From: Botryllus schlosseri
Taxonomy: Eukaryota
Reading direction: 5' to 3'
DNA length: 64,000 nt
NCBI GenBank assembly: GCA_051294905.1
Contig: CM119371.1
Span: 4,404,001 to 4,468,000, forward strand
A program made the position numbers and the translations under genes. This document shows positions 28,901 through 51,962 of this stretch, piece after piece (the stretch's first letter is position 1; each line of letters opens with the position of its first letter). The notes beneath the pieces are model-generated. The model was given only the letters and a program-made list of their open reading frames with translations, made no database searches and had not been told where the DNA came from.

Positions 28901-30639
28901 CACCCTTTGTATACTTCATTAGATATTGAAGCCTATGTTGTTGTGTTAACGCATATGGCTCTACTAAAGAATTGAAAGCCATTTTAAAATCATAAAAATC
29001 ACTGGCGTTTCCTGTAAAGATGGGAGGTTCCGTGAGGGGTAATAAAGAAGGTTGGGGAACTTGGGCATACATAACCTTGGGCTCCGAATTACTGATATTG
29101 TTTTTAGGAGCAAGGAAACAAGCTTCAGCATTGGCTGGTGTCGAAATAAGAGCAGCGGGTTTAGGTCCCCGTTCATATTTTGGTAACTTAGTAGGTTCAC
29201 TACGGCCCTGCAAACAAGGGCTATCAAAATCAATCAGATCTAGCACCGAGTTAACAGTATTTGAACCCAAAGGTTGCGAACTACCTGGAATGGATGGACA
29301 ATTAAACTGAGGAATGAATTCGATGGCAGTTTCCTGCTTGACTACAGGACTCAGTCTAGTACTAAAAATTGATTGTCGGGTTTCTAGGGACTGAGGAACA
29401 AAAGGAATTTGAACGTCGGTGCGATTCATACCTGAAACATTAACAGTAGGAAGCTCAAAACCAAGCACCTTTCTCTCTGCGCGAGTTTCCTCAAGCGCAG
29501 ATGCGATTTCGAATTGGTCCCTCTGATGCCTCATACTGAGTTCATCGATCTCTCGTTGTCTAATGCGTCTCAAGGTTTCAACCTCGGACTTGTTTTCCCG
29601 TTCGAGTTCTTCTGCTTCGAGCTTTTGCTGTCGAGCAATTTCTTCCCGTCTTGATTTAATCTTTTCAAGCATTTCTTCTTCTTCACGATGATGCCGCAAC
29701 ATGAGTTGCTGTTTTTCCAGAATATGACGTTGTGAGGATGAAGCAGATCTGGCCTCCAGAACCGCTTCTTGTTGCATCAATGTCATACCCACATCTGAGG
29801 TAGACATTGTTGAGCCTGAGCCATGTGATTGAGTAACATGACTTTTTGATTTAATACTCGATCGACTGCCAACCTTTGCCTTTGATCTGGTAGTCATCAT
29901 ATGTAGATTGTCTTTGGTTAGCAATGCACTTTTGGCGCTTCTTTTCACATGACGCGAAACCATGCCAGCAGACACACAACTCGAACTTGTTCTAGTCTTT
30001 GTTTTGTTCAAGTTGTTTTTTGGCTGTGCTGCAGCTCCTATCGCGCCATAAGCTTTGGCTTGCGTTGCTAATTGTTGAATCGGGCCTTCCATATTATCTT
30101 CGGATAACACCAGGGCGTCAATTCCACGTTGATTTGATGCTAGTTGATTGGAGACCGCAACATCTTTCAACAGCTCCATTATGAAATATCCTTTGTCGTT
30201 TAGTGCAACGTTTCGTTTGATGCGATGTGATCATTAAAAACTTGTGTAACCGCAGAAATTTCAGGCCTAATCTGGGTACACGACGTAGCACTGTCAGCTG
30301 TCTTCGCTCCGGTTGAAACTTAAACACGCGTCTTCTTGGGTGAAGTACGGTTTTTAATGATCCAAATTCCCAGCGACTATACAACTGACCAAATAATTTA
30401 TAACAATCCAAATTCTTAATACAAACAAATAATACGAATTAAAATAACATGAAAGCCAAATAGAACCCTAAATACGATAATACGCATCCTAAACTAAACG
30501 ATTTGAGTCAAACAATAATATGCGACCAATACCATGCAGTGCGCCACGTGAAGTGATATATTCGAGGCGCCAAAACCATCATTCATGCGTCATAGAAAGA
30601 ATCATTGGTCCATTGCGAAGGTGGAATTCTGCGGCAACA
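25926..30639 (-). mobile_element. BEL/Pao LTR retrotransposon, internally deleted
   Basis: Apparently identical 395-bp LTRs (25926-26320, 30245-30639), TGT..ACA ends, 5-bp TSD GTGTC, PPT GGGGGTGAGGG. Confidence 0.95.
26631..30179 (-). CDS. BEL/Pao gag-protease-partial integrase polyprotein (1182 aa), lacking RT/RNase H and the integrase DDE core
   Basis: Three Cys/His knuckles (CPQCKQTH..C, CFSC...GH..EC, C...C.GKH..LLH), ALLDGAS protease motif, LRVGGR, HHCC, C-terminal W..GR....PG.D..VR.V...RPITKL. Confidence 0.9.
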   Translation of the reverse strand: MELLKDVAVSNQLASNQRGIDALVLSEDNMEGPIQQLATQAKAYGAIGAAAQPKNNLNKTKTRTSSSCVSAGMVSRHVKRSAKSALLTKDNLHMMTTRSKAKVGSRSSIKSKSHVTQSHGSGSTMSTSDVGMTLMQQEAVLEARSASSSQRHILEKQQLMLRHHREEEEMLEKIKSRREEIARQQKLEAEELERENKSEVETLRRIRQREIDELSMRHQRDQFEIASALEETRAERKVLGFELPTVNVSGMNRTDVQIPFVPQSLETRQSIFSTRLSPVVKQETAIEFIPQFNCPSIPGSSQPLGSNTVNSVLDLIDFDSPCLQGRSEPTKLPKYERGPKPAALISTPANAEACFLAPKNNISNSEPKVMYAQVPQPSLLPLTEPPIFTGNASDFYDFKMAFNSLVEPYALTQQHRLQYLMKYTKGVPHVLIKGCLHADSHSCFDKAWKILNENYGQEHQISRCCLESILGGPRFSENDRDGLAMFWAKLVSCRETLMGTNSLHEIDNIMVIDKVEDRLPEGWRSGWRSIVDNIVNVKREKLTMLDLSNYIRKKSRELETKPKINWSLSNERFVNPKGSKTSFATQMESTTASCCPQCKQTHFLNQCNIFRAMNFEQRHNFVQQNKLCFSCLQAGHFSKECYRKKPCSQAKCFGKHTTLLHPPDNNPSQSHKPIQLIKSEQNSESDKTTSSFASSIQKEAGALLPGLPVKVRVGSGGNIFTTKALLDGASRNSFITHSLLERISAKGRDVSVAVKTLNGVGSHKTETLIDNVEVSAYNGNDWVSLSTLVSTEEIPLGKYEMPLQEDIQDFPEFDGIEIPDVDCDVELLIGFDNRSIHRPREVVDGPADFYAVRTLIGWAVACERSEIKGNGKLPVSCNFTKVSTDSVCEMCSDVIDKVKTEKTCLATVVSDVPTPGIEFMDEAIKKHCNWFKLKKVIAWVLRYKDRLLSKVRGTSGGNESLPAGLLTTDEVLRSEREIIKHEQAKFYAAEMHAIANGQNLRPASTLYRLKPFIENGLLRVGGRIMEAPIAYENQHQIVVPRDSRIASAIFEWHHRLSGHSGREHVLGMVRKKYWIVRPQPKLRKIIYDCVICRKRQRQPESQQMSNLPAKRPKWIDGKCNLKIDDIVLIMDDNLPRNAWLLGRVTQLFPGKDDLVRSVRIKTKNSELERPITKLVLIQSSST

Positions 30640-30883
30640 GTGTCTACCTTCTCTTCATTTCCGCTAGTAATTATTTCGTGCGTTTGTCTATCTGTTAGTT
30701 CATCATTCTGGTGTAGGGCGTTCTGAGAGTAGCATGTGTTTCCTGATTAACTTCTGTTTTAACGTTTATATTCTTTGTAGCATAGTCTACACTTTTAGTG
30801 AATAAAAGCCTAGAAAGCCGTATATCTATTGGTGGGTTTTCCTCGCAAGCTCACAACAATTTTATTCACTAAATCTGAAGATC

Positions 30884-31651
30884 ATGGCTGGTTCTCAGGA
30901 AAAGTATATTCGAGTGCCAATACTCGAAATCCTTCCAAGTTCTCCGGATTCCCTAAAGGTCTTCAATCACTGGGAAAAGATGCTCAACAATTTTATCACT
31001 GCAGTTGAGACTTCGAATACGCCACCTCCTAACTCTGGTGAAAACCCTCCCGCACCTGTCATCGATAAGTTGGCGATCCTTACAGGGTATGTGTCTCCCG
31101 ACGTCTATTCATTGTTCGAACAGCTAGATACCTTCACGGCAGCAATGGACCTGCTTAGATCCAGGTATCGAAAGAAAAAGAACGTCATTTATGCAAGGCA
31201 TCTGCTGGCCATTGCGAAACAAGATCCAGGCAAATCTATCACCGAGTTCTCACAGGATTTGCTCATGCTTGCTCGTGATTGTTCGTTCGAGAATGTATCG
31301 GCGGACCAGCACAGACAAGAAGCCGTACGGGATTCACTAATTACTGGTCTACACTCGTCAGCTATTCGTCTGCGCTTACTCGAACATGACGATTTGACGC
31401 TGGAAAAGGCCATTAAAATTGCAGAGTGTCTGGAACAGGCACAGAAGTTTTCTAGTTCCTACGAGCCGCAGAGTCAACCTGTTCTGAATGTCAACAGCGA
31501 TCAATCTGCTATTAGTTCCAATTTATCGGCGTTCAAGAGCGATGTGCCTGCCGCGAATATATTGAAGAAGAAGTGCTTTTTCTGCGGAGAAATTCACGAA
31601 TGAACACGGAAATCCTGTCCCGCGAAAGATGTTTCATGCTTTCATTGTGGC
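30884..31651 (+). pseudogene. gag: Gypsy #2 gag (in-frame TGA at 31601-31603 inside the zinc-knuckle region)
   Basis: ARH.L...KQ..G.S and RD..I.GL motifs; CFFCG..H..*..CPA...CFHCG..GHYAKVC; same frame as pol. Confidence 0.9.
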
Positions 31652-33150
31652 GTGCGGGGACACTATGCGAAAGTGTGCAGATTGCGTATCGGAGGAGAAC
31701 CTGCTGCCTCGTTGAACTCGTTAGTCTCTGGTTCGGCACTTGCTGGAATACCCGACTCTCTTCGGTATTCTTGCCTCGACGTCTCCGTTGCGCAATATAA
31801 CGTGAAGGCTTTGATAGATTCCGGTGCTTATGAATGCTATATCAGTGAATCCCTATCGAAATTCCTCGGTCTTCGCCCGTTTGGTCGCAAGTACTCCATC
31901 ACACTTGCAGAGAAGAACTCCGTAACAACTGTTCTCGGGTGCATTGAAGCTTCACTCGAGATACCGGGGTGTAATTACGGCAAAGTCAAATTCAGAGTCG
32001 TTAAAGATCTCATTGCTGATGTGATCCTGGGATTGGAATTCATGAAGCAGCATGGCAAAGTTGTATTTGAATTTGGCGGACCATCGAAGGATCTCATCAT
32101 TTCGAATGGTTTACATTGCGCCGTAGCAGCTGCGAGAGTATCCGCACCTCCTCAAATATTCAAATTCGTCGACCCTGAAGTGCGACCCGTAGCTGTCAAA
32201 TCAAGAAATTATAGTTCAGATGACCGGAAATTCATTGCGAGTGAGTTGTCGAAACTGCTGCGTGACGGTGTAGTAGAACGTTCCGTGTCTCCCTGGCGAG
32301 CCCAGGTCTTGGTAACGAAAGATTTTCGGCACAAGAAGAGGTTAGTAATCGATTACTCACAGACCATCAATAGGTTTACTCCTCTGGGTGCATACCCTTT
32401 GCCCAAAATAGAGAACATCGTGAACGACGTGGCGAAAGGAATGGTATATAGCACCATTGATTTAAAATCTGCTTACCACCAAGTACCGCTATCTGTATCC
32501 GATAGGCCATATACTGCATTTGAAGCTGGTGGATCGTTGTATCAATTTTGTCGTCTCCCTTTCGGGATAACCAATGGTGTAGCTGCGTTTCAGCGGTTCA
32601 TTGATAAATTCATTGCTGAGCACAAACTAAATGGTACTGTTGCCTACCTCGATAACGTCACGATTTATGGGGAAAACCAGAAAGACCATGATGAAAGGCT
32701 TCAAGCCTTCATGTCTGCTGCGACAAATTGGGGATTGACTCTCAATAAAGATAAATGTCTGTTGTCCGTGTCAAAACTCTCATTACTTGGACATTTAATA
32801 TCACATAACACAATTCAGCCAGATCCTGATCATCTTAAACCATTACTCGACATGCCAGTTCCTAACGACAATCGCAGTTTGAAACGTTTCATGGGGATGA
32901 TGGCTTACTATTCAAAGTGGATCCCCTCTTTCTCGGGGAAAATCAAACCATTATGTCAAAATTGCGAATTCCCGTTGATTGGCATTCAGCTGGAAGCCAT
33001 TAATACTCTGAAAACGGACTTATTACGGGCCTGTCTAAGTTGTATTTATGACGATGAGCCTTTCCAAGTCGAATGTGATGCTTCAGACCACGACATCGGG
33101 GCCATTCTGAGCCAACGGGGCAGACCAGTCGCCTTTATGTCCCGAACGTT
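31652..33150 (+). pseudogene. pol: Gypsy #2 pol, 5' part (protease, RT, start of RNase H)
   Basis: LIDSGA, RLVIDYS, IDLKSAYHQ, LPFG, YLDN and ECDASD motifs. Confidence 0.95.
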
Positions 33151-36100
33151 AGTAGTTATGTAGATCGGTCGTGAGGTGGCAGGGGTTCTTATGGGCCCGC
33201 TGGTGACTCGCCGCGAAACTCGTGTTGGTGATTCGCCCTTTTCGACCCCCCCTTCCGCTGGTGATTCGCCATGTGTTCTTATGGGTGCGGCCGTGATTCG
33301 CCTTTTTTGCTATAGGCTGCGTCGGTGACTCGCCGCGAAAACTCGTGTTGGTGACTCGCCTTTTTTACTATAGGCGGTGGCGGTGATTCGCCTGTCATGT
33401 ATTCTTACGCGGTCTCTGGTGACTCGCCATGTGTTCTTATGGGTGCGGTCGTGATTCGCCCTTTCAGGTATAGCTCGTGGCGGTGACTCGCCGTGAAAAC
33501 TCGTGGTCGTGACTCGCCTTTTTTGCTATAGGCGGTGGCGGTGATTCGCCTGTCATGTATTCTTCAGATCGGGTTATTCGCACCTTGTATACCGCTGTTT
33601 CGCACCTACAGAATAGTCTGCTGTTCACAGTCGTGACTTCACCGCGATAGCACAATATTCGCAGGTAATATTTCCGCAATAAGTTTGTCACAGAACCGTT
33701 GCACAATATCCGCGTTCACAAACTAACACTCCAAAAAGGTGTGAAATATTGGTAAAATCCCGCGATCGCTCACAAGATAATACCTAAGACATAACCATCG
33801 CTTGCGACTCGCTGTTACATACATGCCGATCGTTGACAATGTAATATTTTGGTAATTGGTTTGCCACAGAGCCGGCGTAGACGGTGATTCAAATATCAAC
33901 AATAGCCGCGTTCACAAACCAACACTTCAAAAACGTGTGAAATAGGTTACAAATCCCACGATCGCTCACAAGATAACACCAAAGACATCACCATTTCTCG
34001 CGTCTTGTCATTACATACATCCCAATCGCTACAGTGTAATGTGTCGATGGTTGTTACTATCAAGTAATAAGTAATGAATAACAGTACCAGCGCAGACCGT
34101 GATTCGAAAACCAACAATTTGACACTTGCCCGCGATCGCTATATGTTTCATGCCTCTCGAATAGTGGGTGACTTTAGTTGCGTGATAAGATCCATGAAAA
34201 TATTCAATCAATGTGTTAGTTTGTCAACTTGAAATGTAACTCACTACACAGATCAAGTTGAATCGTATTTGAATGTATTGACTCGACCCAACTCAAATCC
34301 TTTGACAAATCCTATTAACGCAATCTGTTGAATCGAACGTAACCTGAATATTACTGACACCAACATTCACCCACATCGGATCATTCACACATTCCACGCC
34401 GCTGTTTTAACAGTTATAGAATCAATACCAACTATCTCTAACCCGATAATATTCAATCATTTTGGTAATTTACCAACTTTAAATCCATTCGCGGATGTAC
34501 TAAAGGTAAATCCAGATAATCCAAAATGAAATATTTGGACTTTGACATAGTCTGAATTGAAATAGATTGACAAACATGACTTACAACTTTCAACCCAGTC
34601 ATATTTAGAGATTATACACACATTGATTCGAAACAAGTAATGAAACATTACAACTCTATTCGCGATCCGGCTTTTCAATTGCCAAAGCGACATTTTAACA
34701 TCTTACCATACTCAAAAGAATTATTCACAACATTAACAAGTGTTAAATATCTAGTTTTCACTTACTTGATTATATCACTACAACTCACAAACTTGAATTA
34801 ATTCATCCTGGTTGTATTCATATGACCGATAATTTTTTATTCAACTGTAAAGGTCGTTACTATTCTGTAAAACAAAGTATTTACTAATCGGTCCATATAC
34901 GACTTGACATAAACCTATTACATTTTGAATATACGATATTTGAATGTCTGAACAATAACTGAGAAATAATTATCACAAGTGAATCCATATACGACAGCGT
35001 AAAAGATATTGGAATGTCAGCAACTCTTCACGGTCGTAGTTACTACCACATTAACTAATTTACCCGACCAACTCGTCATGATCATTCCTGAAATCAACAC
35101 AAACATGCCCCTGTCTTCAGTTACCACAAAACAGCATCAAGTTTTAAATCCACTTGTAGCTGATGGATTATTTGATTGCATCGATAGAGAATATTATTGA
35201 ACTCGTCGGTATTGTTACTACAACAAATTTTCGCTTACACCGACTGCGAAAGTTAATATCGAATGGTAAGTCTTGACCGCATATTTGTTGAACACAGACA
35301 TGACAAAGAACATTACCGAGATTTTATAAACTAGTCATATTACTTTTCACATCTATCAATATCAGAATACAAGTAATCAAACTTTTTGTTAAATGTAACA
35401 TAGCACTTTTGGAATCGGATTCGTTATAGTCATACAAATTGTATTAAATCCAACATCAAAACAAAAGGAATTTTTTTAGTTTATTGAAATCAAATCATTC
35501 GTCTTCGACTTGTGCTTTTCTAGATTGCACGCAACAATTCGTTACGAATGAGCTGTAACCAAAGTTAAGAATTCTTTGTGTCCACAGATATAGAAGATGA
35601 ATATAGCTAACACAATCACGAATCGACGTTTCAGAGTATTTCACGGATGTAATAAACTTGTTAGTGTGGCCTATCTAAAAGTATGCATGCGTTCGATTTC
35701 CATACCGACTGTTGCGATGTTTAGGATTCGCTTACAATGACCAAGAGTGAGGATTTAACATCAATGTCGTTACTGGAGGTATTCACAACAGAGAATCGAA
35801 ACATTACACAGTGTGAAAATATATCTTTGATATCAAAGCACTATCCCAAGTACACGATTAATACTCAACTCCGTTCACACTTTCTATAGAACGTGCTAAA
35901 TGTAAAATATCACGAGGTTGCACTCTAAGACTTTGATCATTACAAAAGTAAATTGAATATGTTTGCTCGACGCATTCAATTCAACTAGAAATGTCTAGTG
36001 CACAACAATCGTAATATTAAGGAAGTACTTGCTACACTGTAATTCACTAAACGTGTTTTGCATTGTTGTTCATTTGTAGCATTGATTGAAATTGTTTTTT

Positions 36101-39100
36101 GAACCCTCAAATAATAATTCCCGACATGAAACCAAACCGCTGAAAGTCGTTACCAACACAAAGAAACACTTTGTACGATGTTTGCCAAATGTACCCTATG
36201 GTTAGGTGTACTAGAATTATTTGTGTAACACATACACCGACAATGTAATCGAAAATTTTTCCGTTGTCATTCGCTAAAGTAAATGTCATCACAATACTCT
36301 GTCACTAAAGATCTTACTTGTATCTGATTGAATCACCGATAATTAACTCGCTAAATCAAACCATAAGGAAATTTCACTCACTCATCAGATATGAAACAGC
36401 GTCGCTTAATCGGTGTAGATCGTTTTTCTAAATGCAAATCATACCTGACCAACAGAAAACAATTTTCACTCACCTTGTAATGAAACCAAGTGTAGTGGAC
36501 CTTCGTTCAATATTTTGTTTGTGTCAAATACTTTGCAATAAACACACTGGAGTGGTCGAGCTTTACATCAGCAGACTGTAATCTGTAAATCAAGCTTACA
36601 TCCGACTTGTAACTGTATCGTTTACCTAACCGAGTTGTATGCACAGTTTGATATTTTTTGTTATTTGGTAATTGCTGAATATACTACTTCGAAATACTCC
36701 CTTGAACGTAATTTCCATCATCGTAATAATCGAAGTACATTTGTGTCGAATTCGTAACAGCCGACTATGACATGATAAATTTTTGACAAGTTATGCTTGG
36801 AAGATTGGTTGTATATCACGAAAAATAATTACCGCTCATATTCATACTGTTATCCATTGTTCGGTATTTTTAAACGAGTAAAATTTATTACTTGAGTTAC
36901 TCCGCTTAATGCAAATGTAAACACAACCGTCTTTCAACATCGCAAAGACATCGATACAAAGTATACAATCAAACGCAACAAGTTTTACTTTTGTAGGTTG
37001 TGTATGGTTATCCTGCATAACTCATTTCTTACCAAAGCCATATGAAATATATTCATGTTACACGAAAATATTCACTCATGCTACAAACCTGTACAATGAT
37101 TGGTGGTGCTTTCAAACTGTTTCGATACCTCAAGAACTTTATTGTCTGAATGGTTGTTCATGTATCACAATAATCAAGTAATTCAACACAGAACTAGTAT
37201 TAACAGAAACACCAAAGTTGTTTACACAAAAGTTTGTATGTGTACAGTATACGAATACCATGTGTAAGTCCAGCACAATTGTGGACGAGTTTAGTTAACA
37301 CAATTTACGACACCGAGGTCGCGTCATCTTTCGTAAGACAACAAACCAAGGCTTCAGGATATGTCCATGTCATAGCAATGAATCAGCTACTCCAACAACA
37401 GAGTGCATATGTTTTCTAGTTACGGTGCTTACATCTTACACACAAATCAATCTACTTTGCTAACGAAAAGTGGTGAGTCATCATATGGTTATCCTCACTA
37501 GTAAAACATACTATCATACAAAATGGTCGTTATAGTTTGCACACCAACGGTACATCGTACAAGTAACAATTCTCGAGAATCCAGTTATTCAAAAAACGTG
37601 AAAGTATTTCTACACCAAGTCGTTATGTTGACGAAAGCGTATATTGTAATATCATGATCAATTTGCATTCGTTGGTCACAAACTGTCACTACTCCAAATA
37701 ATTCTTTTTCACTCAAACACAAACGCACACTTGTCACCATTCGTTTTCATCAAGTACGAGTTCAAGAAACTTACTACGACATGAATTTTTATTTTTATGT
37801 TGTGTAAATAGGTAATAATTAATTCAAGTAACACTATATCAACATCATCGAGTTGTGCTAATAGATTTACATGTGGTCTTGTGGTTTTCATCGGGACATA
37901 CAGCACGAACTATCTGTAGACTCCTCTCTGTTGTACAGCTACTCGGTAATCGAAATGCATTAACATGTAAACAACGATCTTGTTTCGTCACACCAAAAAA
38001 TATGTTCACTGTCGCGATACTCCGCACAAGACGTGCATAGCCTTTGCACACTCGTAATAGTATACCAACGTCAAGCGATAACGTTTAACAAGACCAACGA
38101 CACTGACTCCACGACGTTTACCTATGTAAAATTACCACTTTCACTTGCCAGTCCATCGTTTACCTGACTAAACATATTATTTTCCTTTGGAGATCTGACG
38201 TTTACCCAGAGTAAGAAACCATTTTCACTTGTAAATATATTTTTTCCTCGGCTAACAAACCTTTTTCACTCGGAAATCTATTTTTTCTCTGGTTAACAAA
38301 CCTTTTTCGCTTGGAAATATATTTTTTCTCTGGTTAACAAACCTTTTTCACTTGGAAATATATATTTTTCCCCGGGTAACAAACCTTTTTCCCTGAGCAA
38401 CAAACCATTTTAACTTGGTGGTCCGTCGTTTAGTCGAGTAAAAATATCATTTTCCTTTGGAGATCCGGCGTTTACCCAGTGTAACTATACATTTTCGCTT
38501 GGAAAAATACTTTTACCTAGAGTAACTAATCATTTTCTCCTGGGTAACAATCCCTTTCCGTCTGGAAACTATCATTTAACTGAGTACCAATACCGTTTTC
38601 ACTTGGAAATACATTTTTTCCCTGGGTAACAATACCATTTTCGTTTTGAAAACTGACAACCACACCGGCCAATTTGATGTTTTTGTATATTGTTACAACG
38701 AAGAGTGACGGAAATATACACAGACTACCGGTTTTAGAGTATACCCCATCGGTCGTATCACATCAATATCATCGGTTAACCACATACAATATACTCTTGT
38801 ACACCGAAATGCACGCTTTGGAAAATTGGACAATAGGCTGCGATAGTTCTGCGATGTCCGGGTTCGTGCTTTGGATTTTCCAGAGTCAAAATGTCTGAAT
38901 AAAACACCTCCTCGACGACGGTTGGTATGTGGATAACGGTGTTCGGAAAACGGTTGGATTTATGTCACCCATCACGATAACAACTCCAGGTCGAGTTTTC
39001 CTCCCGCATGTTTACTATATTGTGTCTTTATTGGTCAATGTATGTCTCGACATTCAGTTTGAAATCGGAAACCCTGATAAAGTATGTAACCGGATCCGGA

Positions 39101-39375
39101 TATCAACTCTGAATCGATAAACCAATGAACAATATTCAAAGTAAACATGTTACACCCTGTGTTTCCACGAAAAAATACCATCCAGACATACGTCGCGCTT
39201 GTTTGCCCGCACCAGTATACGCGCGCGCAAATGGAGGTGTGTGACATTGCATGCAATGTGTTGGTATACAAACATCGATCCACAGACATTATCATAGCCG
39301 GTAGTTTTGATGTAGATCGAATGTCACCCGATAACAATGTCATACCAATAAGCCACATTGCAATGACTCTGAGTC
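33151..39375 (+). repeat. Left arm of the 6225-bp inverted repeat
   Basis: Mirrored ORF track; paired coordinates sum to 79677 throughout; about six substitutions seen by eye. Confidence 0.98.
36200..38050 (+). pseudogene. Heavily decayed protein-primed family B DNA polymerase (pPolB); mirror copy ~41630-43480 on the minus strand
   Basis: Manual translation gives motif ghosts in the expected order: VVDLRSIFC..L..HTGV; SEWL......IQH...TVYEYH..QHNC; ASGYVHV; YGYPH; HVVLWFSSGHTAR...LSVVQLLGNR...SCFVT. Confidence 0.65.
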
Positions 39376-39400
39376 AATCTGAAGCATGACATACGGACAC
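38780..39400 (+). pseudogene. Possible decayed Polinton rve integrase
   Basis: QYTLVH..ARF, GNPDKV...LNR and YKHRST resemble YTLHKP..RF, GRKP.KLQTD..EFLNR and YHRSI. Confidence 0.4.
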
Positions 39401-39578
39401 ACAAACATAGAAACCGTAACATGGGTATTCGCACGACGGTGAAAGTGAACTATACAGCATATACCAATAGAGTGTTCACAGTCAAATATGCGAACCGTGC
39501 ACAATCATATACCCAGGTTTTTGCTGGATATGTACGAAACCAATAAATCGATACATTTCTTTTCTCTGGACATCAATA

Positions 39579-40250
39579 ATACAATCGCCATTCAAATGCA
39601 TCGCTCGAATGTGAGGTTCGTCGGGTGTAAAATCCATGTCCAATAAAACCAAAGTGTGCCTTCCGTGTTTTATTATTTCCACCGACACTACTTGTCTGTG
39701 TCGTAACACTATGGTGCGGGGAGTTGAAAACGGTGGATTGTGAAACGGATTGACATGACCAACAGAATCGACGTCAATAGTCTTGTGGTCAAAATGTTAC
39801 CGATATGACGAGCGCAACCTCGATCTTTTATGGCGATGACCGTTTCGAAATGTCGCTGGACGAACTGGACCCATACGAAGGTGTGTTTTATGATTGCGTG
39901 TGAAATCACGACGCAGTGTTCTATTGCGGTGTACGATTGCAGTCTTCATTCCACAGAAACACACCTTATTGGATCACAGTATCAGTCCGAGATTTTCAGA
40001 ATCACTGTTCACGATATTTATCTGGAGTCGTTATGTGGGAGTAGCGACGTCCATGCATCGTGACTGAAAGACTGATCGCAATCATTTCGAGCACCCATAC
40101 TTCGATAGTTCACATTGGTCAAATGCTGCAGTCTCAGCAGAAAACTTCGGTGTCGACAACACGACGGATATCGACCGATGTATCCAATTGGTCTGGGTGA
40201 TCTGTCCGGAGATAGGGTCATGACTATCTTGTAATGTTACAACGCGATAA
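39579..40250 (+). pseudogene. Possible decayed Polinton packaging (A32-like) ATPase in the spacer
   Basis: IQSPFKCIARM*GSSGVKS resembles HPFT..I.GPSGSGKT; RNLDLYGDD resembles Walker B RNL.ILDD. Confidence 0.45.
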
Positions 40251-40301
40251 AACCATCGAGTAAATCAGTGAACGGTATCGAAATATCGATGTAATAGCGC
40301 G

Positions 40302-43300
40302 GACTCAGAGTCATTGCAATGTGGCTTATTGGTATGACATTGTTATCGGGTGACATTCGATCTACATCAAAACTACCGGCTATGATAATGTCTGTGGATC
40401 GATGTTTGTATACCAACACATTGCATGCAATGTCACACACCTCCATTTGCGCGCGCGTATACTGGTGCGGGCAAACAAGCGCGACGTATGTCTGGATGGT
40501 ATTTTTTCGTGGAAACACAGGGTGTAACATGTTTACTTTGAATATTGTTCATTGGTTTATCGATTCAGAGTTGATATCCGGATCCGGTTACATACTTTAT
40601 CAGGGTTTCCGATTTCAAACTGAATGTCGAGACATACATTGACCAATAAAGACACAATATAGTAAACATGCGGGAGGAAAACTCGACCTGGAGTTGTTAT
40701 CGTGATGGGTGACATAAATCCAACCGTTTTCCGAACACCGTTATCCACATACCAACCGTCGTCGAGGAGGTGTTTTATTCAGACATTTTGACTCTGGAAA
40801 ATCCAAAGCACGAACCCGGACATCGCAGAACTATCGCAGCCTATTGTCCAATTTTCCAAAGCGTGCATTTCAGTGTACAAGAGTATATTGTATGTGGTTA
40901 ACCGATGATATTGATGTGATACGACCGATGGGGTATACTCTAAAACCGGTAGTCTGTGTATATTTCCGTCACTCTTCGTTGTAACAATATACAAAAATAT
41001 CAAATTGGCCGGTGTGGTTGTCAGTTTTCAAAACGAAAATGGTATTGTTACCCAGGGAAAAAATGTATTTCCAAGTGAAAACGGTATTGGTACTCAGTTA
41101 AATGATAGTTTCCAGACGGAAAGGGATTGTTACCCAGGAGAAAATGATTAGTTACTCTAGGTAAAAGTATTTTTCCAAGCGAAAATGTATAGTTACACTG
41201 GGTAAACGCCGGATCTCCAAAGGAAAATGATATTTTTACTCGACTAAACGACGGACCACCAAGTTAAAATGGTTTGTTGCTCAGGGAAAAAGGTTTGTTA
41301 CCCGGGGAAAAATATATATTTCCAAGTGAAAAAGGTTTGTTAACCAGAGAAAAAATATATTTCCAAGCGAAAAAGGTTTGTTAACCAGAGAAAAAATAGA
41401 TTTCCGAGTGAAAAAGGTTTGTTAGCCGAGGAAAAAATATATTTACAAGTGAAAATGGTTTCTTACTCTGGGTAAACGTCAGATCTCCAAAGGAAAATAA
41501 TATGTTTAGTCAGGTAAACGATGGACTGGCAAGTGAAAGTGGTAATTTTACATAGGTAAACGTCGTGGAGTCAGTGTCGTTGGTCTTGTTAAACGTTATC
41601 GCTTGACGTTGGTATACTATTACGAGTGTGCAAAGGCTATGCACGTCTTGTGCGGAGTATCGCGACAGTGAACATATTTTTTGGTGTGACGAAACAAGAT
41701 CGTTGTTTACATGTTAATGCATTTCGATTACCGAGTAGCTGTACAACAGAGAGGAGTCTACAGATAGTTCGTGCTGTATGTCCCGATGAAAACCACAAGA
41801 CCACATGTAAATCTATTAGCACAACTCGATGATGTTGATATAGTGTTACTTGAATTAATTATTACCTATTTACACAACATAAAAATAAAAATTCATGTCG
41901 TAGTAAGTTTCTTGAACTCGTACTTGATGAAAACGAATGGTGACAAGTGTGCGTTTGTGTTTGAGTGAAAAAGAATTATTTGGAGTAGTGACAGTTTGTG
42001 ACCAACGAATGCAAATTGATCATGATATTACAATATACGCTTTCGTCAACATAACGACTTGGTGTAGAAATACTTTCACGTTTTTTGAATAACTGGATTC
42101 TCGAGAATTGTTACTTGTACGATGTACCGTTGGTGTGCAAACTATAACGACCATTTTGTATGATAGTATGTTTTACTAGTGAGGATAACCATATGATGAC
42201 TCACCACTTTTCGTTAGCAAAGTAGATTGATTTGTGTGTAAGATGTAAGCACCGTAACTAGAAAACATATGCACTCTGTTGTTGGAGTAGCTGATTCATT
42301 GCTATGACATGGACATATCCTGAAGCCTTGGTTTGTTGTCTTACGAAAGATGACGCGACCTCGGTGTCGTAAATTGTGTTAACTAAACTCGTCCACAATT
42401 GTGCTGGACTTACACATGGTATTCGTATACTGTACACATACAAACTTTTGTGTAAACAACTTTGGTGTTTCTGTTAATACTAGTTCTGTGTTGAATTACT
42501 TGATTATTGTGATACATGAACAACCATTCAGACAATAAAGTTCTTGAGGTATCGAAACAGTTTGAAAGCACCACCAATCATTGTACAGGTTTGTAGCATG
42601 AGTGAATATTTTCGTGTAACATGAATATATTTCATATGGCTTTGGTAAGAAATGAGTTATGCAGGATAACCATACACAACCTACAAAAGTAAAACTTGTT
42701 GCGTTTGATTGTATACTTTGTATCGATGTCTTTGCGATGTTGAAAGACGGTTGTGTTTACATTTGCATTAAGCGGAGTAACTCAAGTAATAAATTTTACT
42801 CGTTTAAAAATACCGAACAATGGATAACAGTATGAATATGAGCGGTAATTATTTTTCGTGATATACAACCAATCTTCCAAGCATAACTTGTCAAAAATTT
42901 ATCATGTCATAGTCGGCTGTTACGAATTCGACACAAATGTACTTCGATTATTACGATGATGGAAATTACGTTCAAGGGAGTATTTCGAAGTAGTATATTC
43001 AGCAATTACCAAATAACAAAAAATATCAAACTGTGCATACAACTCGGTTAGGTAAACGATACAGTTACAAGTCGGATGTAAGCTTGATTTACAGATTACA
43101 GTCTGCTGATGTAAAGCTCGACCACTCCAGTGTGTTTATTGCAAAGTATTTGACACAAACAAAATATTGAACGAAGGTCCACTACACTTGGTTTCATTAC
43201 AAGGTGAGTGAAAATTGTTTTCTGTTGGTCAGGTATGATTTGCATTTAGAAAAACGATCTACACCGATTAAGCGACGCTGTTTCATATCTGATGAGTGAG

Positions 43301-46300
43301 TGAAATTTCCTTATGGTTTGATTTAGCGAGTTAATTATCGGTGATTCAATCAGATACAAGTAAGATCTTTAGTGACAGAGTATTGTGATGACATTTACTT
43401 TAGCGAATGACAACGGAAAAATTTTCGATTACATTGTCGGTGTATGTGTTACACAAATAATTCTAGTACACCTAACCATAGGGTACATTTGGCAAACATC
43501 GTACAAAGTGTTTCTTTGTGTTGGTAACGACTTTCAGCGGTTTGGTTTCATGTCGGGAATTATTATTTGAGGGTTCAAAAAACAATTTCAATCAATGCTA
43601 CAAATGAACAACAATGCAAAACACGTTTAGTGAATTACAGTGTAGCAAGTACTTCCTTAATATTACGATTGTTGTGCACTAGACATTTCTAGTTGAATTG
43701 AATGCGTCGAGCAAACATATTCAATTTACTTTTGTAATGATCAAAGTCTTAGAGTGCAACCTCGTGATATTTTACATTTAGCACGTTCTATAGAAAGTGT
43801 GAACGGAGTTGAGTATTAATCGTGTACTTGGGATAGTGCTTTGATATCAAAGATATACTTTCACACTGTGTAATGTTTCGATTCTCTGTTGTGAATACCT
43901 CCAGTAACGACATTGATGTTAAATCCTCACTCTTGGTCATTGTAAGCGAATCCTAAACATCGCAACAGTCGGTATGGAAATCGAACGCATGCATACTTTT
44001 AGATAGGCCACACTAACAAGTTTATTACATCCGTGAAATACTCTGAAACGTCGATTCGTGATTGTGTTAGCTATATTCATCTTCTATATCTGTGGACACA
44101 AAGAATTCTTAACTTTGGTTACAGCTCATTCGTAACGAATTGTTGCGTGCAATCTAGAAAAGCACAAGTCGAAGACGAATGATTTGATTTCAATAAACTA
44201 AAAAAATTCCTTTTGTTTTGATGTTGGATTTAATACAATTTGTATGACTATAACGAATCCGATTCCAAAAGTGCTATGTTACATTTAACAAAAAGTTTGA
44301 TTACTTGTATTCTGATATTGATAGATGTGAAAAGTAATATGACTAGTTTATAAAATCTCGGTAATGTTCTTTGTCATGTCTGTGTTCAACAAATATGCGG
44401 TCAAGACTTACCATTCGATATTAACTTTCGCAGTCGGTGTAAGCGAAAATTTGTTGTAGTAACAATACCGACGAGTTCAATAATATTCTCTATCGATGCA
44501 ATCAAATAATCCATCAGCTACAAGTGGATTTAAAACTTGATGCTGTTTTGTGGTAACTGAAGACAGGGGCATGTTTGTGTTGATTTCAGGAATGATCATG
44601 ACGAGTTGGTCGGGTAAATTAGTTAATGTGGTAGTAACTACGACCGTGAAGAGTTGCTGACATTCCAATATCTTTTACGCTGTCGTATATGGATTCACTT
44701 GTGATAATTATTTCTCAGTTATTGTTCAGACATTCAAATATCGTATATTCAAAATGTAATAGGTTTATGTCAAGTCGTATATGGACCGATTAGTAAATAC
44801 TTTGTTTTACAGAATAGTAACGACCTTTACAGTTGAATAAAAAATTATCGGTCATATGAATACAACCAGGATGAATTAATTCAAGTTTGTGAGTTGTAGT
44901 GATATAATCAAGTAAGAGAAAACTAGATATTTAACACTTGTTAATGTTGTGAATAATTCTTTTGAGTATGGTAAGATGTTAAAATGTCGCTTTGGCAATT
45001 GAAAAGCCGGATCGCGAATAGAGTTGTAATGTTTCATTACTTGTTTCGAATCAATGTGTGTATAATCTCTAAATATGACTGGGTTGAAAGTTGTTAGTCA
45101 TGTTTGTCAATCTATTTCAATTCAGACTATGTCAAAGTCCAAATATTTCATTTTGGATTATCTGGATTTACCTTTAGTACATCCGCGAATGGATTTAAAG
45201 TTGGTAAATTACCAAAATGATTGAATATTATCGGGTTAGAGATAGTTGGTATTGATTCTATAACTGTTAAAACAGCGGCGTGGAATGTGTGAATGATCCG
45301 ATGTGGGTGAATGTTGGTGTCAGTAATATTCAGGTTACGTTCGATTCAACAGATTGCGTTAATAGGATTTGTCAAAGGATTTGAGTTGGGTCGAGTCAAT
45401 ACATTCAAATACGATTCAACTTGATCTGTGTAGTGAGTTACATTTCAAGTTGACAAACTAACACATTGATTGAATATTTTCATGGATCTTATCACGCAAC
45501 TAAAGTCACCCACTATTCGAGAGGCATGAAACATATAGCGATCGCGGGCAAGTGTCAAATTGTTGGTTTTCGAATCACGGTCTGCGCTGGTACTGTTATT
45601 CATTACTTATTACTTGATAGTAACAACCATCGACACATTACACTGTAGCGATTGGGATGTATGTAATGACAAGACGCGAGAAATGGTGATGTCTTTGGTG
45701 TTATCTTGTGAGCGATCGTGGGATTTGTAACCTATTTCACACGTTTTTGAAGTGTTGGTTTGTGAACGCGGCTATTGTTGATATTTGAATCACCGTCTAC
45801 GCCGGCTCTGTGGCAAACCAATTACCAAAATATTACATTGTCAACGATCGGCATGTATGTAACAGCGAGTCGCAAGCGATGGTTATGTCTTAGGTATTAT
45901 CTTGTGAGCGATCGCGGGATTTTACCAATATTTCACACCTTTTTGGAGTGTTAGTTTGTGAACGCGGATATTGTGCAACGGTTCTGTGACAAACTTATTG
46001 CGGAAATATTACCTGCGAATATTGTGCTATCGCGGTGAAGTCACGACTGTGAACAGCAGACTATTCTGTAGGGGCGAAACAGCGGTATACAAGGTGCGAA
46101 TAACCCGATCTGAAGAATACATGACAGGCGAATCACCGCCACCGCCTATAGCAAAAAAGGCGAGTCACGACCACGAGTTTTCACGGCGAGTCACCGCCAC
46201 GAGCTATACCTGAAAGGGCGAATCACGACCGCACCCATAAGAACACATGGCGAGTCACCAGAGACCGCGTAAGAATACATGACAGGCGAATCACCGCCAC

Positions 46301-46526
46301 CGCCTATAGTAAAAAAGGCGAGTCACCAACACGAGTTTTCGCGGCGAGTCACCGACGCAGCCTATAGCAAAAAAGGCGAATCACGGCCGCACCCATAAGA
46401 ACACATGGCGAATCACCAGCGGAAGGGGGGGTCGAAAAGGGCGAATCACCAACACGAGTTTCGCGGCGAGTCACCAGCGGGCCCATAAGAACCCCTGCCA
46501 CCTCACGACCGATCTACATAACTACT
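40302..46526 (-). repeat. Right arm of the 6225-bp inverted repeat
   Basis: Reverse complement of 33151-39375. Confidence 0.98.
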
Positions 46527-47955
46527 AACGTTGTCTAAAAGCGAGATGAAATATCCGGCTGTTGAGAAAGAGGCGTTGGCAATTATAGAATCGGTCAGAA
46601 AATGGGGTTATCTGTTGATCAGAAACGAGTTCCAATTGATCACAGACCAGAAGGCGCTTTCATTTATTTTCCGAAAAAGTCACCCGAGCAAAATCAAGAA
46701 CAGCAAGTTATCTATATGGAAATTAGAACTAAGCTCGTTGAAATATGAAATTATTCATCGTCCTGGTAAGGAACACGTGGGCGCTGATGCACTTTCTCGT
46801 TTGTGTTCTATTTCGTCGTCGTCTGGAATGTCGTTGCAACAGGTTCATGAAGCCCTGAGTCACCCCGGAGTCCGTCGACTACATCACTTTGTTCGAGCGA
46901 AAAATCTACCATTCTCCATGGAGGACGTCAAAAAGATCTGTTCTAATTGTTCGGTTTGCGCTGAATTTAAACCGAGGTTTTTCAAATCCAACCAAGTGAA
47001 TCATCTCGTCAAAGCCACTAGACCCTGGGAACGTATAAGCATTGATTTTAAAGGTCCTGTTTCCGGACCAAAGCGGTTTATACTCGTTATAATCGATGAA
47101 TATAGCAGATTTCCATTCGCTTATGCATGTCGTGACATGACCTCTGCTACTGTAATCAATTGCCTGTCTTCATTGTTTTCTCTTGTTGGACTCCCAGAAT
47201 ACGTCCACAGTGATCGGGGAACTTCATTCCTATCGAAAGACGTAACGGCCTTCCTGACGCGTAAAGGTGTTGCGACAAGCAAATCAACACCCTATCATCC
47301 AACGGGTAATGCTCAGTGTGAACGTCTGAACCAAACCCTCTGGAAGGCAATTAAACTCCGCTTAGCTACTCAAAGGTTGCCTGAACGGTTGTGGGAGCAA
47401 GTCCTACCCGATGCCTTACATTCGATAAGGTCTCTACTCTGCACGTCTACTAACTGTTGCCCTCATGACCGATTTTTCAGCTTCGAGCGCAGATCCATGC
47501 TGGGGGTGTCGATACCTGATTGGCTACTAAACGGTGGTACTGTGCTGCTACGGAACTTTGTTCGCAACAAGAGTGATCCCGAAGTGGTTAGAGTAGAGCT
47601 TCTAGATGCTAACCCGAAATATGCATTAATTCGTCACAGGAACGGGACGGAATCAACTGTATCAGTAAAGGATCTAGCCCCGTGCCCGCGTGAAGAGAAC
47701 GATAATGGGCTTGATTTCCGTTCCATCGAGCCTGCAGTCGACTTGCGTTCTGCCGAAATCAACAACGACCAGAATGGTTTATTATCTCAAAACTCCTCGG
47801 ATCATCATTCAAACTCTCCTGTCGATACTCAAAACGACTCCCACGATACCTCAATCGGTCGAAACGATTCCGATGCAACTGTTGATGAGCCACCGATCCG
47901 AAGGTCATCAAGAATCAGACGAGCGCCCGATTGGTATGGTGACCGCACAACATGA
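46527..47955 (+). pseudogene. pol: Gypsy #2 pol, 3' part (RNase H, integrase)
   Basis: EKEALAI, TDQK, ADALSR, HHCC, IDFKGP, HSDRG and ERLN motifs; joins in frame (FMSRT-LSKSE) once the insertion is removed. Confidence 0.95.
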
Positions 47956-48462
47956 CTTCAGTACAGTGGCCCGATCATTTTAGGCTGGGGAGATTGTGGT
48001 GTTATATTTATCCGTTAGGTGTCTACCTTCTCTTCATTTCCGCTAGTAATTATTTCGTGCGTTTGTCTATCTGTTAGTTCATCATTCTGGTGTAGGGCGT
48101 TCTGAGAGTAGCATGTGTTTCCTGATTAACTTCTGTTTTAACGTTTATATTCTTTGTAGCATAGTCTACACTTTTAGTGAATAAAAGCCTAGAAAGCCGT
48201 ATATCTATTGGTGGGTTTTCCTCGCAAGGTCACAACATTCGGCATTTGCGATGTACTCAACCCTAATGAATTGATATATTATTAAATTTGGGGTACCGGC
48301 ACCGGGCTTATCGAGCGCCTTGAATCTTACATACTGAGAAGGCGTTGTCGAGAAATTACATCTGAGAATCGACTCCGAATGTGGCATAACCGTCATGCAC
48401 TTGTATACGACCTGTATATATGAATAAGATGCCTGCATTGCATGCGTTGCATTATCGGTAAT

Positions 48463-50475
48463 ATATATATATATATATCGGCTTTCAATTAAATAAAAGG
48501 GCAAAAGAAAACAGGAAACAAATGAACATCAAGATAATGAGTTTTGGGCCCTTATGAAGCGCCTCCATCGTGGGCGGTCGTGGGCGTCTTCGAGCGATAG
48601 CCCGCGTTGCGCTAGCTCGGTCTCTATTGTTGAGCGCCATGTGGTTCTATTCCAGCCACCTCTGCGCCATGGCTCCGTCGGAATGTGGTTGATGATGACG
48701 GCGGCTGGTTGATCGTCTTGATGCCGCACTAGATGACCGATTAAGCGTAAGCGTCGTTCAGCAGCCAGCAAACGGCATGGGACTGTTTTTGTGAGTTTGC
48801 GCAGAGCATTGGTGGATATGTGCTCCGGGTGGTGGATGCCGAGTGCGTAGCGGAGGAGTGCATCGTAGTTGGCGTTGAGTGTCTTAGCCAGCTTTTCTGT
48901 CAGCGTGAGTGCATCTATTCCGTAGAGAAGAACCTGCTCGACAGTGGCACGGAAGATGCGGGTCTTGGGCTGGGTTGAGGCACTTGAATGGAAGAGGCTA
49001 TGTAGCCGTCTTGCCGCGCCCCAGGCCTTTGCTCGCCTCGCCTTGAGCGCTTTTCCAGAGTCAGCGACGTCAATACCGAGGTATACAAAACTCGTTACAT
49101 ACTTGAGATCGATATCTCCCAGTTGAATTGGTGTCGCGTTCACCGGTAGAGCTGGTATGGCCAGAACCTCAGTCTTCTTAGCGTTGATCTGGAGGCCAAC
49201 AAGAGCGGCGGCGGCCTCTAGCTGGTTAATGAGACGCTGTGCCGATACGGCGTTCGGGGCAAGCAGGGCTAGGTCGTCTGCGTAGGCAAGAATACCTACG
49301 TGGATTGCCTCGCGAGTCGTACGCGTGCGCGTTCCTTGCCGTGGCCGCCATTCAAAGAAGTTCGTAGTATCCGGGAAGGCCGTTCGTAGCACGAAGTCAA
49401 GGATGACCACAAACAAGAATGGTGCCAGGGTGTCACCTTGAAGCACACCAGCCGAAGTGTTGAAATCTCCGCTTGGGCCGTCATCTGTTCGGACTCGCGC
49501 TCGTGTGTCAGTGTAGAGGGCCATAATGGCGTACGTTATCACCTCAGGAATTCCATAGAATCTGAGGATCTCCGCCATGGCTGGGCGCGAGACCGAGTCG
49601 AAGGCTTTCGCGAAATCAACGAAGACGGCCACAACATTCTTTTTGTGTGAGCGGCAGGTGTCAATGATTGTGCGCAGTGCCAGGATGTGCTCTGTTGTAC
49701 CGCGGGATGGTCGAAATCCATTCTGAGCATTCAAGAGCTTGGTAGAGAGCTGCTCACGTATGCGAAGGAGCAGTACTCGGTCGAACAGCTTGGCAGCGGT
49801 CTGCATCAGGGAGATGCCTCTGTAGTTCGCTGGGTCACTCGCAGCGCCTTTCTTGTAGATAGGGACGATTTCGCTCTCGAGCCACTCGGGGGGCACCGGG
49901 CCGCCTTCGAGGACGCCATTCATGACGTCGAGGAGCACAGGTGCAACGCCCGAGGTGTAAGCAGCCGTTGGGATGCCGTCCGTGCCGGTGGCCTTGAATT
50001 GTGGTACTCCACGCATGGCTGTCTTGAGCTCACCTAGCGTGATCAGGGTTGTATTGATCGCTAGAGGATTTGCTGCTAGTGAAGGCGGTGCAACGAGCAC
50101 ATCGATGTCTGGTGCAGGTGTAGATAACAGGGTCTCGAAGTGTGCTGCGAGGTCTTCCGTACAGGCCTTCACGCGGGTCCTCTTGAAGCCAACTAATTCA
50201 CCGATGGCTTTCCAGGCTGCTCTTGATCGGCCTGCTTCAAACTCATTTTCCACGGAAAGGGCAATAGCTTCGACTCGTTCCTTGCGAGCTGCGTCATAAA
50301 CGTTTGTTAAGTACAGAGCTGCCTCGTTGGCATCGCTATGTGCGTCCAGTGTTCCAGAGGTGTACGCAGCACGTCTGAGAGTCTTGAGGTTGCGGCGCGC
50401 ACTGAGCACTGTCGGGTCGGATTCCCAGGCTAATCTTGGCCGTGGCTTGCTACGGGCCTCACCGATAAATACCAA
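48463..50475 (-). mobile_element. 5'-truncated RTE-clade LINE with an open RT frame (48529-~50460)
   Basis: NYRGISL, QNGFR, FVDFAKAFDSV, GVLQGDTLAPFLF, YADD and F.YLG motifs; (TA)n tail; 12-bp TSD ATTATCGGTAAT (48451-48462, 50476-50487). Confidence 0.93.
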
Positions 50476-51962
50476 ATTATCGGTAATGTCGATTCTCGGT
50501 GGTGTCATTCTCGGTAATGGTTTTCTCGGTATTGACCGGACAGGGTCCGGCGGGCCACGTTATCAACTAAGACGGGAAACTGTCCGCGGGCCGGACAAAA
50601 TCCTGTCGCGGGCCGTACGTTGCCCGCCCCTGGTTTAGATGATGACAATTATTCTAGAAGGTTCAAATCGGTGATGTATTATCACTACTATGAACAACAA
50701 TACAAACACATTTTTGTAGATTTCAGTGTAGCGTGTATTTCGATTTCTTTAATATTATGGGTTTTGTGTGTTGGATAAGTCTAATTGAATCGGAGGTGTC
50801 TAGCAAAAATATACCAATTAGTTTTTTTTTTAATGATCAAAGTGTTAGAGTGTGAACAGAGTTTAACACGGTTTAAATGATGGCTCGAATTCTAAAGTGA
50901 TATTTTCGTACTGTGTAATGTGCGTGTGTTTCAATTAGCTGTCGCGGATTCTGACAATAAAGCATTGTACCGGTGGTTGATCAGCAAACGAAATTGTTGT
51001 TTCATCTTTAGTCTTGGTTACTGGAAACGCCCCAATGCGTAGACGCCGTAGAGTGATTTATACCAACATGGAATAATTTTCCAATCAAGAACATTTCAGA
51101 CACGCTAATCTAGTTTTACAACTCCATATGTTAATAACAATGATCCTGAAAATTTTGTTGATATCGCAATAACCAACACCGGTCCAATTACGTCATAATT
51201 TAATAACCAAGTCATGATCGAATATTACAAACGCTCGTATGTCAAACCAATGTGAAGGATGTTTACAACATGATAACTTTCATGTAACACCAGCGTTCGA
51301 TTGTGAGAAATGAATTCTCAACTACGTTGGTCAGACAATCAAAGCTCGTATACCAAAAGCATAATATGTTATTCTCAAGTCGCACACCAAGTAATAATTA
51401 GTTTTTCTTACAGAATATACCGCATAGTAATGACTTTGTCTTATATAATAGACCGCGTCGTAATTTTTTCATCTTACAGAATAGTAACAACTTTTAAAGT
51501 TGAATAAGGAGGGGGGGCACAAACACGAGTTTCGTGGCGGGTCACCAGCAGACATGGGGTAATTGTGATTAGTAATCGTAATCGACTGCGACGATCACAG
51601 CATTTCCAAGTAATCCTAATCGCAATCGATTACATTCGAAAAAAATCTGAAGTAATCGTAATCGATTATTTCACATATCTAATCGATTTCTTGGTGAAAG
51701 AACGATTACTTTTCATTTGAAGAATGACTGAAACTGAACAAGGAAGAGTGCCATGTTATACCATGTTATTGCTAGGAGATGTCGGCTTTTTAAGCCCCGC
51801 TGCTCATTATCACGTCACAAGCATTAGCTTTGCTCGTCGATGATTACGTAACGAATTATACACACATAGTAAATAGATATTCGATGTATATGTAGTCGTG
51901 TGATTCTAAGAGTCGTCGGCATGCCGTATATCAGGTTATTAATATACTCCAGACATCTAACA

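Follow-up and report, generated by a model that had tools for sequence, protein, structure and literature searches.

The window analysed here is a 64,000-nucleotide stretch of the Botryllus schlosseri genome (assembly GCA_051294905.1, contig CM119371.1, positions 4,404,001 to 4,468,000 of the forward strand), and it contains a giant palindromic element of 13,376 bp at window positions 33151-46526. This element is, very probably, one copy of a high-copy non-autonomous Polinton/Maverick family with about 450 or more members of 12-15 kb, and the palindrome itself, with a spacer of about 0.9 kb flanked by non-coding arms of 5-7 kb each, is then the design that the family inherits. We found that the two arms of each copy evolve in concert, and that the same genome contains an intact-looking autonomous Polinton, hereafter the helper, whose ends match those of the palindrome.

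The two arms of the window element, each of 6,225 bp, make up 93% of its length. In an inverted-repeat alignment that left out the target site duplication (TSD), they differed by six substitutions (left/right positions 33604/46073, 34582/45095, 34760/44917, 35819/43858, 38679/40998 and 38805/40872) and no indels, and complementarity broke off sharply at the 926-bp spacer. Raw inverted-repeat detection gave slightly longer arms (33145-39375 and 40302-46532, with 926 nt between them), which take in the TSD because AACGTT is itself palindromic. Only two short tandem arrays were present in each 6,225-bp arm (33258-33564 and 38212-38391 in the left one), and the GC skew of the arms is uninformative because it is mirror-image by construction. 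The junctions read ...AACGTT|AGTAGT... on the left and ...ACTACT|AACGTT... on the right, so that the element has the terminal inverted repeats (TIRs) with 5′-AG...CT-3′ ends and the 6-bp TSD of an autonomous Polinton. When the flanks were compared with two uninterrupted paralogous copies of the host Gypsy retrotransposon, they overlapped by exactly one AACGTT in both, indicating that the element together with the 6-bp duplication is an insertion. It cuts the RNase H of the Gypsy, as positions 3-40 of the Pfam RT_RNaseH profile end the upstream open reading frame (ORF) and positions 39-103 begin the downstream one, and the two long terminal repeats (LTRs) of this Gypsy differ at 1 of 219 sites. 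The arms, spacer, termini, TSD, split RNase H and nearly identical LTRs had all been reported in a preliminary description of the window, and each was reproduced here. Taken together, these results show that the 13.4-kb palindrome is a real, and probably a recent, insertion. The same description called the insertion very young, a view that its position inside a young Gypsy supports and that the likeness of its arms does not; the mechanism that homogenises the arms is uncertain, so arm identity is an unsafe insertion clock, and the age of this copy is therefore better judged from the Gypsy with its single LTR difference.

The element also lacks an intact gene, as had been claimed. None of the 72 stop-to-stop frames of at least 45 aa in the arm and spacer reached a Pfam cut-off (one sub-threshold match, to SUEL-lectin, scored 17.5 against a cut-off of 31.4), and a search of the same sequence against Rfam gave no match. 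Fifteen ORFs of the helper were compared with the element by tblastn, and nothing better than E = 0.33 was obtained, with a best E of 0.49 for the helper pPolB. Two hallmarks of an autonomous Polinton, pPolB and the rve integrase, were thus not found in the element by Pfam or tblastn.

Family size and the helper Polinton

The genome assembly (495.5 Mb, 219 contigs) was searched with the terminus pattern AGTAGT-N6-GATCGSTCG, and 967 forward and 959 reverse matches were obtained, against 0 and 2 for the reversed pattern used as a control. A 26-mer from the spacer, with up to two mismatches allowed, was found at 459 places genome-wide (208+251; control 0/0). At about 14 kb each, the spacer-bearing copies alone would occupy, as a rough estimate, 1.3% of the genome. 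The first 100 terminus matches, all on contig C1, formed 35 plus/minus pairs of the same terminal variant, with four adjacent plus/minus neighbours of differing variants kept out of the pairing; 21 of the 35 pairs had a spacing of 12.5-15.0 kb (median 14,258 bp). Nine pairs were retrieved with a 500-bp terminus, and eight of them were palindromes homologous to the window element, spacer included, with 73-98% identity in a mosaic pattern, while the ninth was an autonomous Polinton. All eight loci found through the spacer were palindromic around it. Moreover, the window arm sequence was carried by every one of six C1 pairs that had no spacer marker, four of which were mirrored at 99.75-100% in an 800-bp sample taken 3.0-3.8 kb inside, and all three elements of a nested trio were mirrored as well, although for marker-less pairs and nested elements these small mirrored samples establish palindromy at the sampled depth only. 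The arm-spacer-arm design with a homologous spacer was present in all 16 other palindromic copies examined, and the spacer measured 895-1,046 bp in most copies.

Each insertion has its own duplicated target. Perfect 6-bp TSDs flanked 20 of 21 elements, in 19 different sequences, and the sole miss was a copy on C14 whose right end is truncated. Copies with the same termini and different TSDs, which the preliminary description had suggested looking for, are thus present, at several sites and each with a TSD of the helper's length, as expected for a non-autonomous Polinton derivative. In the 20 elements, the target showed a central pyrimidine-purine step, with C or T at position 3 in 18 and G or A at position 4 in all (G in 15); position 2 was A in 11. 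The six bases that follow AGTAGT varied among the C1 elements (for example TTATGT, ATAGTA, AGTATA and TTAGTA) and were alike at both ends in the 35 same-tag pairs. These variants look like differing numbers of AGT/TA units, which is presumably what would be expected if the ends were rebuilt by slipping on the terminal repeat, the slide-back role of short repeats at such ends.

The preliminary description had also called for an intact helper with matching TIRs, and one was located on contig C16 (14142674-14159107). This Polinton is 16,434 bp long, has 860-bp TIRs that are 99.2% identical and a TSD of CAAGTC, and carries a run of open frames. Its integrase passes the Pfam cut-offs for both rve (60 bits, cut-off 32.6) and Chromo (33.4 bits, cut-off 25.1), and its full-length pPolB of 1,295 aa passes that of PF03175 (31.5 bits, cut-off 25.8), whereas its ATPase has a Pfam match below cut-off only. 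Two further frames had language-model neighbours with double-jelly-roll-like (14-30% of cluster members) and adenain (13-25%) domains, and we treat the double-jelly-roll capsid and adenain as candidates that serve as leads only. The helper pPolB gave no match among PDB sequences. In the genome, a pPolB fragment was found at 112 places, 59 of them at 87% identity or more, and 35 of these 59 matches ran without a stop in open frames of at least 1,200 codons. About 45 other pPolB matches had near 70% identity and two near 43%, indicating that several Polinton families coexist in this genome.

The first 323 bp of the window element are 94.4% identical to the end of the helper, and a second block of about 100 bp is shared between them. 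An array of GGTGAYTCGCC 11-mers is also common to both, with nine units at each end of the element and six in the left TIR of the helper; these 11-mers may be protein-binding sites. The ends of the element are thus homologous to those of an autonomous Polinton of the same genome, which bears out the earlier suggestion that it is a non-autonomous relative of such elements. Furthermore, the left and right ends of the helper diverge beyond its TIR boundary, and over the next 30 nt or so both window arms keep to the sequence of the right end; this signal is short and comes from one helper copy. As in a copy-back defective viral genome, both ends would derive from the same end of the parent. Since both arms track the right end, the palindrome would have arisen when a Polinton-like molecule had one of its ends duplicated in inverted orientation, as happens in copy-back, and a founding copy-back event is a plausible origin for the family.

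Concerted evolution of the arms

We then aligned quartets, each made up of the window arm pair and the arm pair of one of six other copies, which together covered 13,239 ungapped columns. Differences were present in both arms of a copy at 551 columns and in one arm at 27, and none followed the left or right side. While copies diverge from each other by 3-25%, the two arms within each copy agree, with 98.1-100% identity per block and, in copy C17, no difference over 6,574 bp. In a tree of the inner 700 bp, arms paired by copy in 12 of 13 copies, and the arm differences of the fetched copies showed no consistent inner or outer bias in position. At each of the six sites where the window arms differ, the state of one arm is the commonest among the other copies, which lack the state of the other arm at five sites and have it rarely at the remaining one (38679, where the others have 26 A, 3 T and 2 G). 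These results demonstrate that the two arms of each copy evolve in concert. Without homogenisation the arms would be as diverged as the copies, and therefore one arm must be repeatedly copied from, or corrected against, the other.

One family member carries a palindrome of a second order. Around its 75-nt loop, this element (C10:12094767-12109481; 14,715 bp, TSD AACGCA) has arms with 100% identity over at least 4,839 bp, as well as over another 1,034 bp sampled from its ends. Both arms contain an old arm end, the former 926-bp spacer in full, 203 bp from the formerly opposite arm and roughly 210 bases more. It is a fresh second-order fold-back, and events of this kind clearly occur in the family; one copy-back with template switches on a free molecule would make such an element in a single step. 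Other copies carry insertions of 2.1, 4.2 and 5.7 kb in one arm only, which were neither copied across nor removed. The 4.2-kb insertion (in a copy on C14, locus L028, 4745-8927) proved to be an LTR retroelement, whose pol is open over 1,052 aa (protease, reverse transcriptase (RT), RNase H and rve) and whose gag has a zinc knuckle, showing that retroelements and palindromes insert into each other.

Origin and maintenance of the palindrome

Based on these observations, we propose that the family arose from a Polinton-like molecule by copy-back of its right end onto itself. Thereafter the protein-primed polymerase of a helper would copy the element and a helper integrase would insert it, as the shared ends and TSD suggest, and one arm would be re-copied from, or corrected against, the other again and again. 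The most likely setting for this homogenisation, to which we give an even chance or slightly less, is the free linear molecule, where it would be coupled to replication. A displaced single strand could fold into a snap-back hairpin and so re-form the duplex origin, as an extreme form of the adenovirus-type panhandle, or the polymerase could switch templates.

More tentatively, the family might consist of satellites of an active endogenous Polinton virus, a lineage that replicates and is packaged in capsids; we consider this fuller scenario possible and rather unlikely as a whole. The palindrome would then be selected because hairpin snap-back rebuilds the protein-primed origin, the arms would be re-copied or corrected at every cycle, and the capsid would hold the length near 80-90% of the helper's. 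Nine fully fetched palindromes, including that of the window, measured 12.2-14.5 kb after subtraction of nested one-arm insertions, and the second-order element measured 14.7 kb although each of its arms had gained about 1.3 kb; two autonomous copies measured 16.4 and 18.3 kb. A gene-less element has no obvious reason to stay so long, which a packaging limit or shared ancestry would explain. The narrow length range, about 80-90% of that of the helper, may hint weakly at such a limit.

Several observations weigh against the explanation given here, in whole or in part. Outside the ends, about 5.7 kb of each arm shows no relation to the helper that could be detected, and the similar lengths of the copies could be plain common ancestry. 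Two of the six marker-less C1 pairs were unmirrored at the sampled place, and the arms of some copies are only 97.6-98.5% alike near the spacer. The arms of one such copy, L033 (C6:26053854-26061767), are 97.6% alike and fall with different copies in the tree, and this copy may be a recombinant between lineages. In a triple nest (C1:16768420-16810257; elements of 41.8, 28.7 and 14.6 kb), 0 of 2,001, 6 of 1,401 and 1 of 2,001 arm sites differed, from the outer and oldest element to the inner one, a result that allows homogenisation in situ or arms that were already unequal at insertion. No read or long molecule spanning the locus was seen among the Logan contigs, which are too short for this: in three DNA-type runs their pieces were at most a few hundred letters long and ended at the Gypsy/element junction (33147), so that they neither support nor contradict the assembly, and, given the many copies of the Gypsy, they are mute on an empty allele. 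Neither an extrachromosomal form nor a transcript or virion was observed, and scans of IMG/VR and metagenomes yielded chance matches only. The 21-letter terminus pattern matched 27 IMG/VR and at least 120 metagenome stretches, which we regard as chance because only 1 of 107 loci checked had even one GGTGAYTCGCC, and the spacer 26-mer had no exact match in IMG/VR.

The strongest competitor, a serious possibility that falls well short of probable, is that the arms are kept identical only by gene conversion at each chromosomal site, with no role for replication of a free molecule. Arm-to-arm gene conversion operates in large sex-chromosome palindromes, which likewise have near-identical arms despite divergence between lineages, although those are single-locus and immobile whereas here the pattern extends across hundreds of transposed copies. 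Gene conversion predicts the same both-arms pattern as was seen in the 551 shared differences, and it would account for the triple nest, where the oldest element has no arm differences and the younger middle one has six. It would also suit the patchiness of the differences along the arms. In copy C2, the outer 3,842 bp is free of them and the inner 2,558 bp has 10, and copy C5 has a 98.1% block flanked by blocks of 99.9-100%. However, the nest is a weak test because four of the six differences in the middle element form one cluster within 15 bp, in the region of repeated 11-mers. Moreover, the one-arm insertions were neither transferred nor lost, some copies have drifted to 97.6-98.5%, and the C10 element, with its new turn-round point and 100% identical arms, is simpler to derive by one copy-back on a free molecule; these same three observations argue for the replication-coupled route. 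The remaining probability belongs to both routes acting together, or to something else.

It is very improbable, and contradicted by the family data, that the window palindrome arose de novo when a non-palindromic template underwent one recent copy-back just before insertion. The scarcity of arm differences (6 of 6,225 sites), the pattern at these six sites, where one state is the commonest elsewhere and the other absent or, at one site, rare, and the occurrence of such a fold-back in the C10 family member would all agree with it. Against it, copies that are 3-25% diverged from the window copy have the same arms and spacer, at a nearly constant spacer length, the spacer marker recurs at hundreds of places, and no non-palindromic template with the arm sequence was found among 29 sampled elements. 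Unlike a defective genome that is made de novo and not inherited, the window element therefore shares its design and spacer with diverged relatives. The copy-back palindrome put forward in the preliminary description thus agrees with the right-end signal in both arms and with the C10 fold-back, but not as a one-off event: the 16 other palindromic copies and 459 spacer markers indicate that the window copy took over its palindrome from a palindromic source.

Still less credible is a foldback-type transposon of another superfamily that has its own unseen transposase and merely Polinton-like ends. The arms of Drosophila Foldback and Galileo elements consist of internal tandem repeats, reach at most about 1-2 kb, and go with other transposases and other TSD lengths. 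In contrast, the 6-kb arms here have Polinton ends and a largely unique sequence, and are not made mainly of tandem repeats as the Drosophila type is. No helper gene lies within the element, and long-armed foldback elements do exist elsewhere, such as Galileo (PMC3573991, in the part available to us), which shares with our family long inverted arms that form much of the element, non-autonomous copies and structural dynamism. However, over its terminal 323 bp the element matches the TIR of an autonomous Polinton at 94.4% identity, and the 11-mer array, TSD length and AG...CT ends are all held in common with the helper. Least probable of all is a fold-back assembly artefact at a locus that really has one arm or none. 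Long perfect palindromes are difficult for assemblers, and no read across the locus was observed. Against this, the Gypsy reading frame is restored by an exact 6-bp duplication, the design recurs in hundreds of copies elsewhere in the genome, each with its own TSD, the spacer is conserved as a family feature, and a duplicated read would not produce the six arm differences.

Comparison with known systems and neighbouring features

Adenovirus populations contain defective genomes with long inverted duplications of one end, and adenovirus uses panhandle repair of its inverted terminal repeats. By analogy, the palindromic family would resemble these genomes in being a protein-primed linear replicon with both ends from the same parental end, dependence on a helper and a length close to that of the helper. 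The adenovirus forms are transient in infected cells, whereas the palindromes are heritable, diversifying and integrated in the germline hundreds of times; the element is known here from sequence alone, and its replication and packaging enter the comparison as inferred properties.

With Polintons/Mavericks the element shares AG...CT ends, a short terminal tandem repeat and a 6-bp TSD, and its ends are those of a copy that encodes pPolB, an rve integrase, an ATPase (below cut-off) and a candidate capsid and protease. It differs in having no genes, in inverted repeats that span 93% of its length compared with typical TIRs of 0.6-0.9 kb, and in being present in hundreds of copies, more than the helper. 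A typical lizard Polinton, according to the available part of PMC3014272, is 17.5 kb long with a 6-bp TSD and 584-bp TIRs. In butterfly Polintons, TIRs of about 2 kb duplicate the hexon and adenain genes, as described in the accessible portion of that report (bioRxiv 10.1101/2025.02.07.637071), indicating that TIRs can grow by inverted duplication of one end; those repeats hold genes, measure about 2 kb and belong to autonomous elements, whereas the arms here are 6 kb, non-coding and helper-dependent. As far as the available portion goes, this is the nearest report to the palindromic family. Our full-text literature search found no description of palindromic non-autonomous Polintons, although Repbase or Dfam may have an entry. 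In the portion available of PMC5499653, the phrase "non-autonomous polintons" is applied only to Tlr1, and the accessible parts of PMC6431247, PMC4028283, PMC2836005 and PMC12090768 contain nothing directly on palindromic ones.

Protein priming, a single-strand panhandle and virion formation are long-standing proposals for Polintons that lack direct evidence, and Maverick particles have not been observed (PMC8097293, as far as its available text goes). A gene-less fold-back family whose arms evolve in pairs leads to concrete predictions, namely snap-back linear DNA, protein-linked ends, DNase-protected DNA of 12-15 kb and correction of the arms at each cycle. If the family is indeed a packaged satellite, its members would be a natural genetic record of how Polintons replicate and of whether they form virions, neither of which has been directly observed. 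Palindromes of such size are usually unstable (PMC8053094, in the part available), and several hundred near-perfect ones with 6-kb arms persist in this 495-Mb genome, where they are a practical hazard for assembly and repeat annotation.

The features of the element and its host Gypsy are collected in Table 1.

Table 1. Coordinates of the palindromic element, its parts and the interrupted Gypsy in the window
Feature	Position	Strand	Evidence
5′ LTR of host Gypsy	30640..30858	+	1 mismatch in 219 vs 48019-48237
Gypsy pol, first part: protease, RT and RNase H up to profile position 40; interrupted by the insertion	31604..33163	+	Pfam profile
Left TSD copy, AACGTT	33145..33150	.	Junction reading; single AACGTT in 2/2 uninterrupted paralogues
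Left arm, 6,225 bp, without supported ORF	33151..39375	+	Inverted-repeat alignment, Pfam, Rfam
Terminal 323 bp, starting with the trinucleotide repeat AGTAGT	33151..33473	+	94.4% identity to end of C16 Polinton; mirror 46204-46526
Nine GGTGAYTCGCC 11-mers, single orientation	33202..33550	+	18 in window vs 0.04 expected, all in the two ends
Second block shared with helper	33563..33662	+	Follows helper right end ~30 nt past TIR boundary; mirror 46015-46114
Internal 41-bp tandem repeat, 4.4 copies	38212..38391	+	Repeat search; mirror 41286-41465
Unique spacer, 926 bp, homologous across family copies	39376..40301	.	89-92% identity in 40/40 scored matches
Right arm, reverse complement of left arm save 6 sites	40302..46526	-	Inverted-repeat alignment
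Mirror array, nine GGTGAYTCGCC 11-mers	46127..46475	-	Same motif count
Gypsy pol, second part: remaining RNase H and integrase	46522..47955	+	Pfam profile
Right TSD copy, AACGTT	46527..46532	.	Junction reading; empty-site comparison
3′ LTR of host Gypsy	48019..48237	+	1 mismatch in 219 vs 30640-30858

In one raw RNA run of 12.9 million records, 79 reads fell on the window stretch, 75 of them partial. Runs labelled as three other organisms contained 41-45% of the sampled 31-letter words of the window copy, and another sample of the same organism contained 55%; the palindrome family may be shared almost unchanged with related species.

Two further features lie beside the host Gypsy. A perfect 395-bp direct repeat (25926-26320 and 30245-30639, 4,319 bp apart) ends exactly where the 5′ LTR of the Gypsy starts (30640), and its two copies are probably the LTRs of a second, very young LTR element that abuts it. 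Just downstream of the Gypsy, on the minus strand at 48529-50559, there is a 676-aa open frame with a YADD motif in its translation, which looks like the reverse transcriptase of a non-LTR element.

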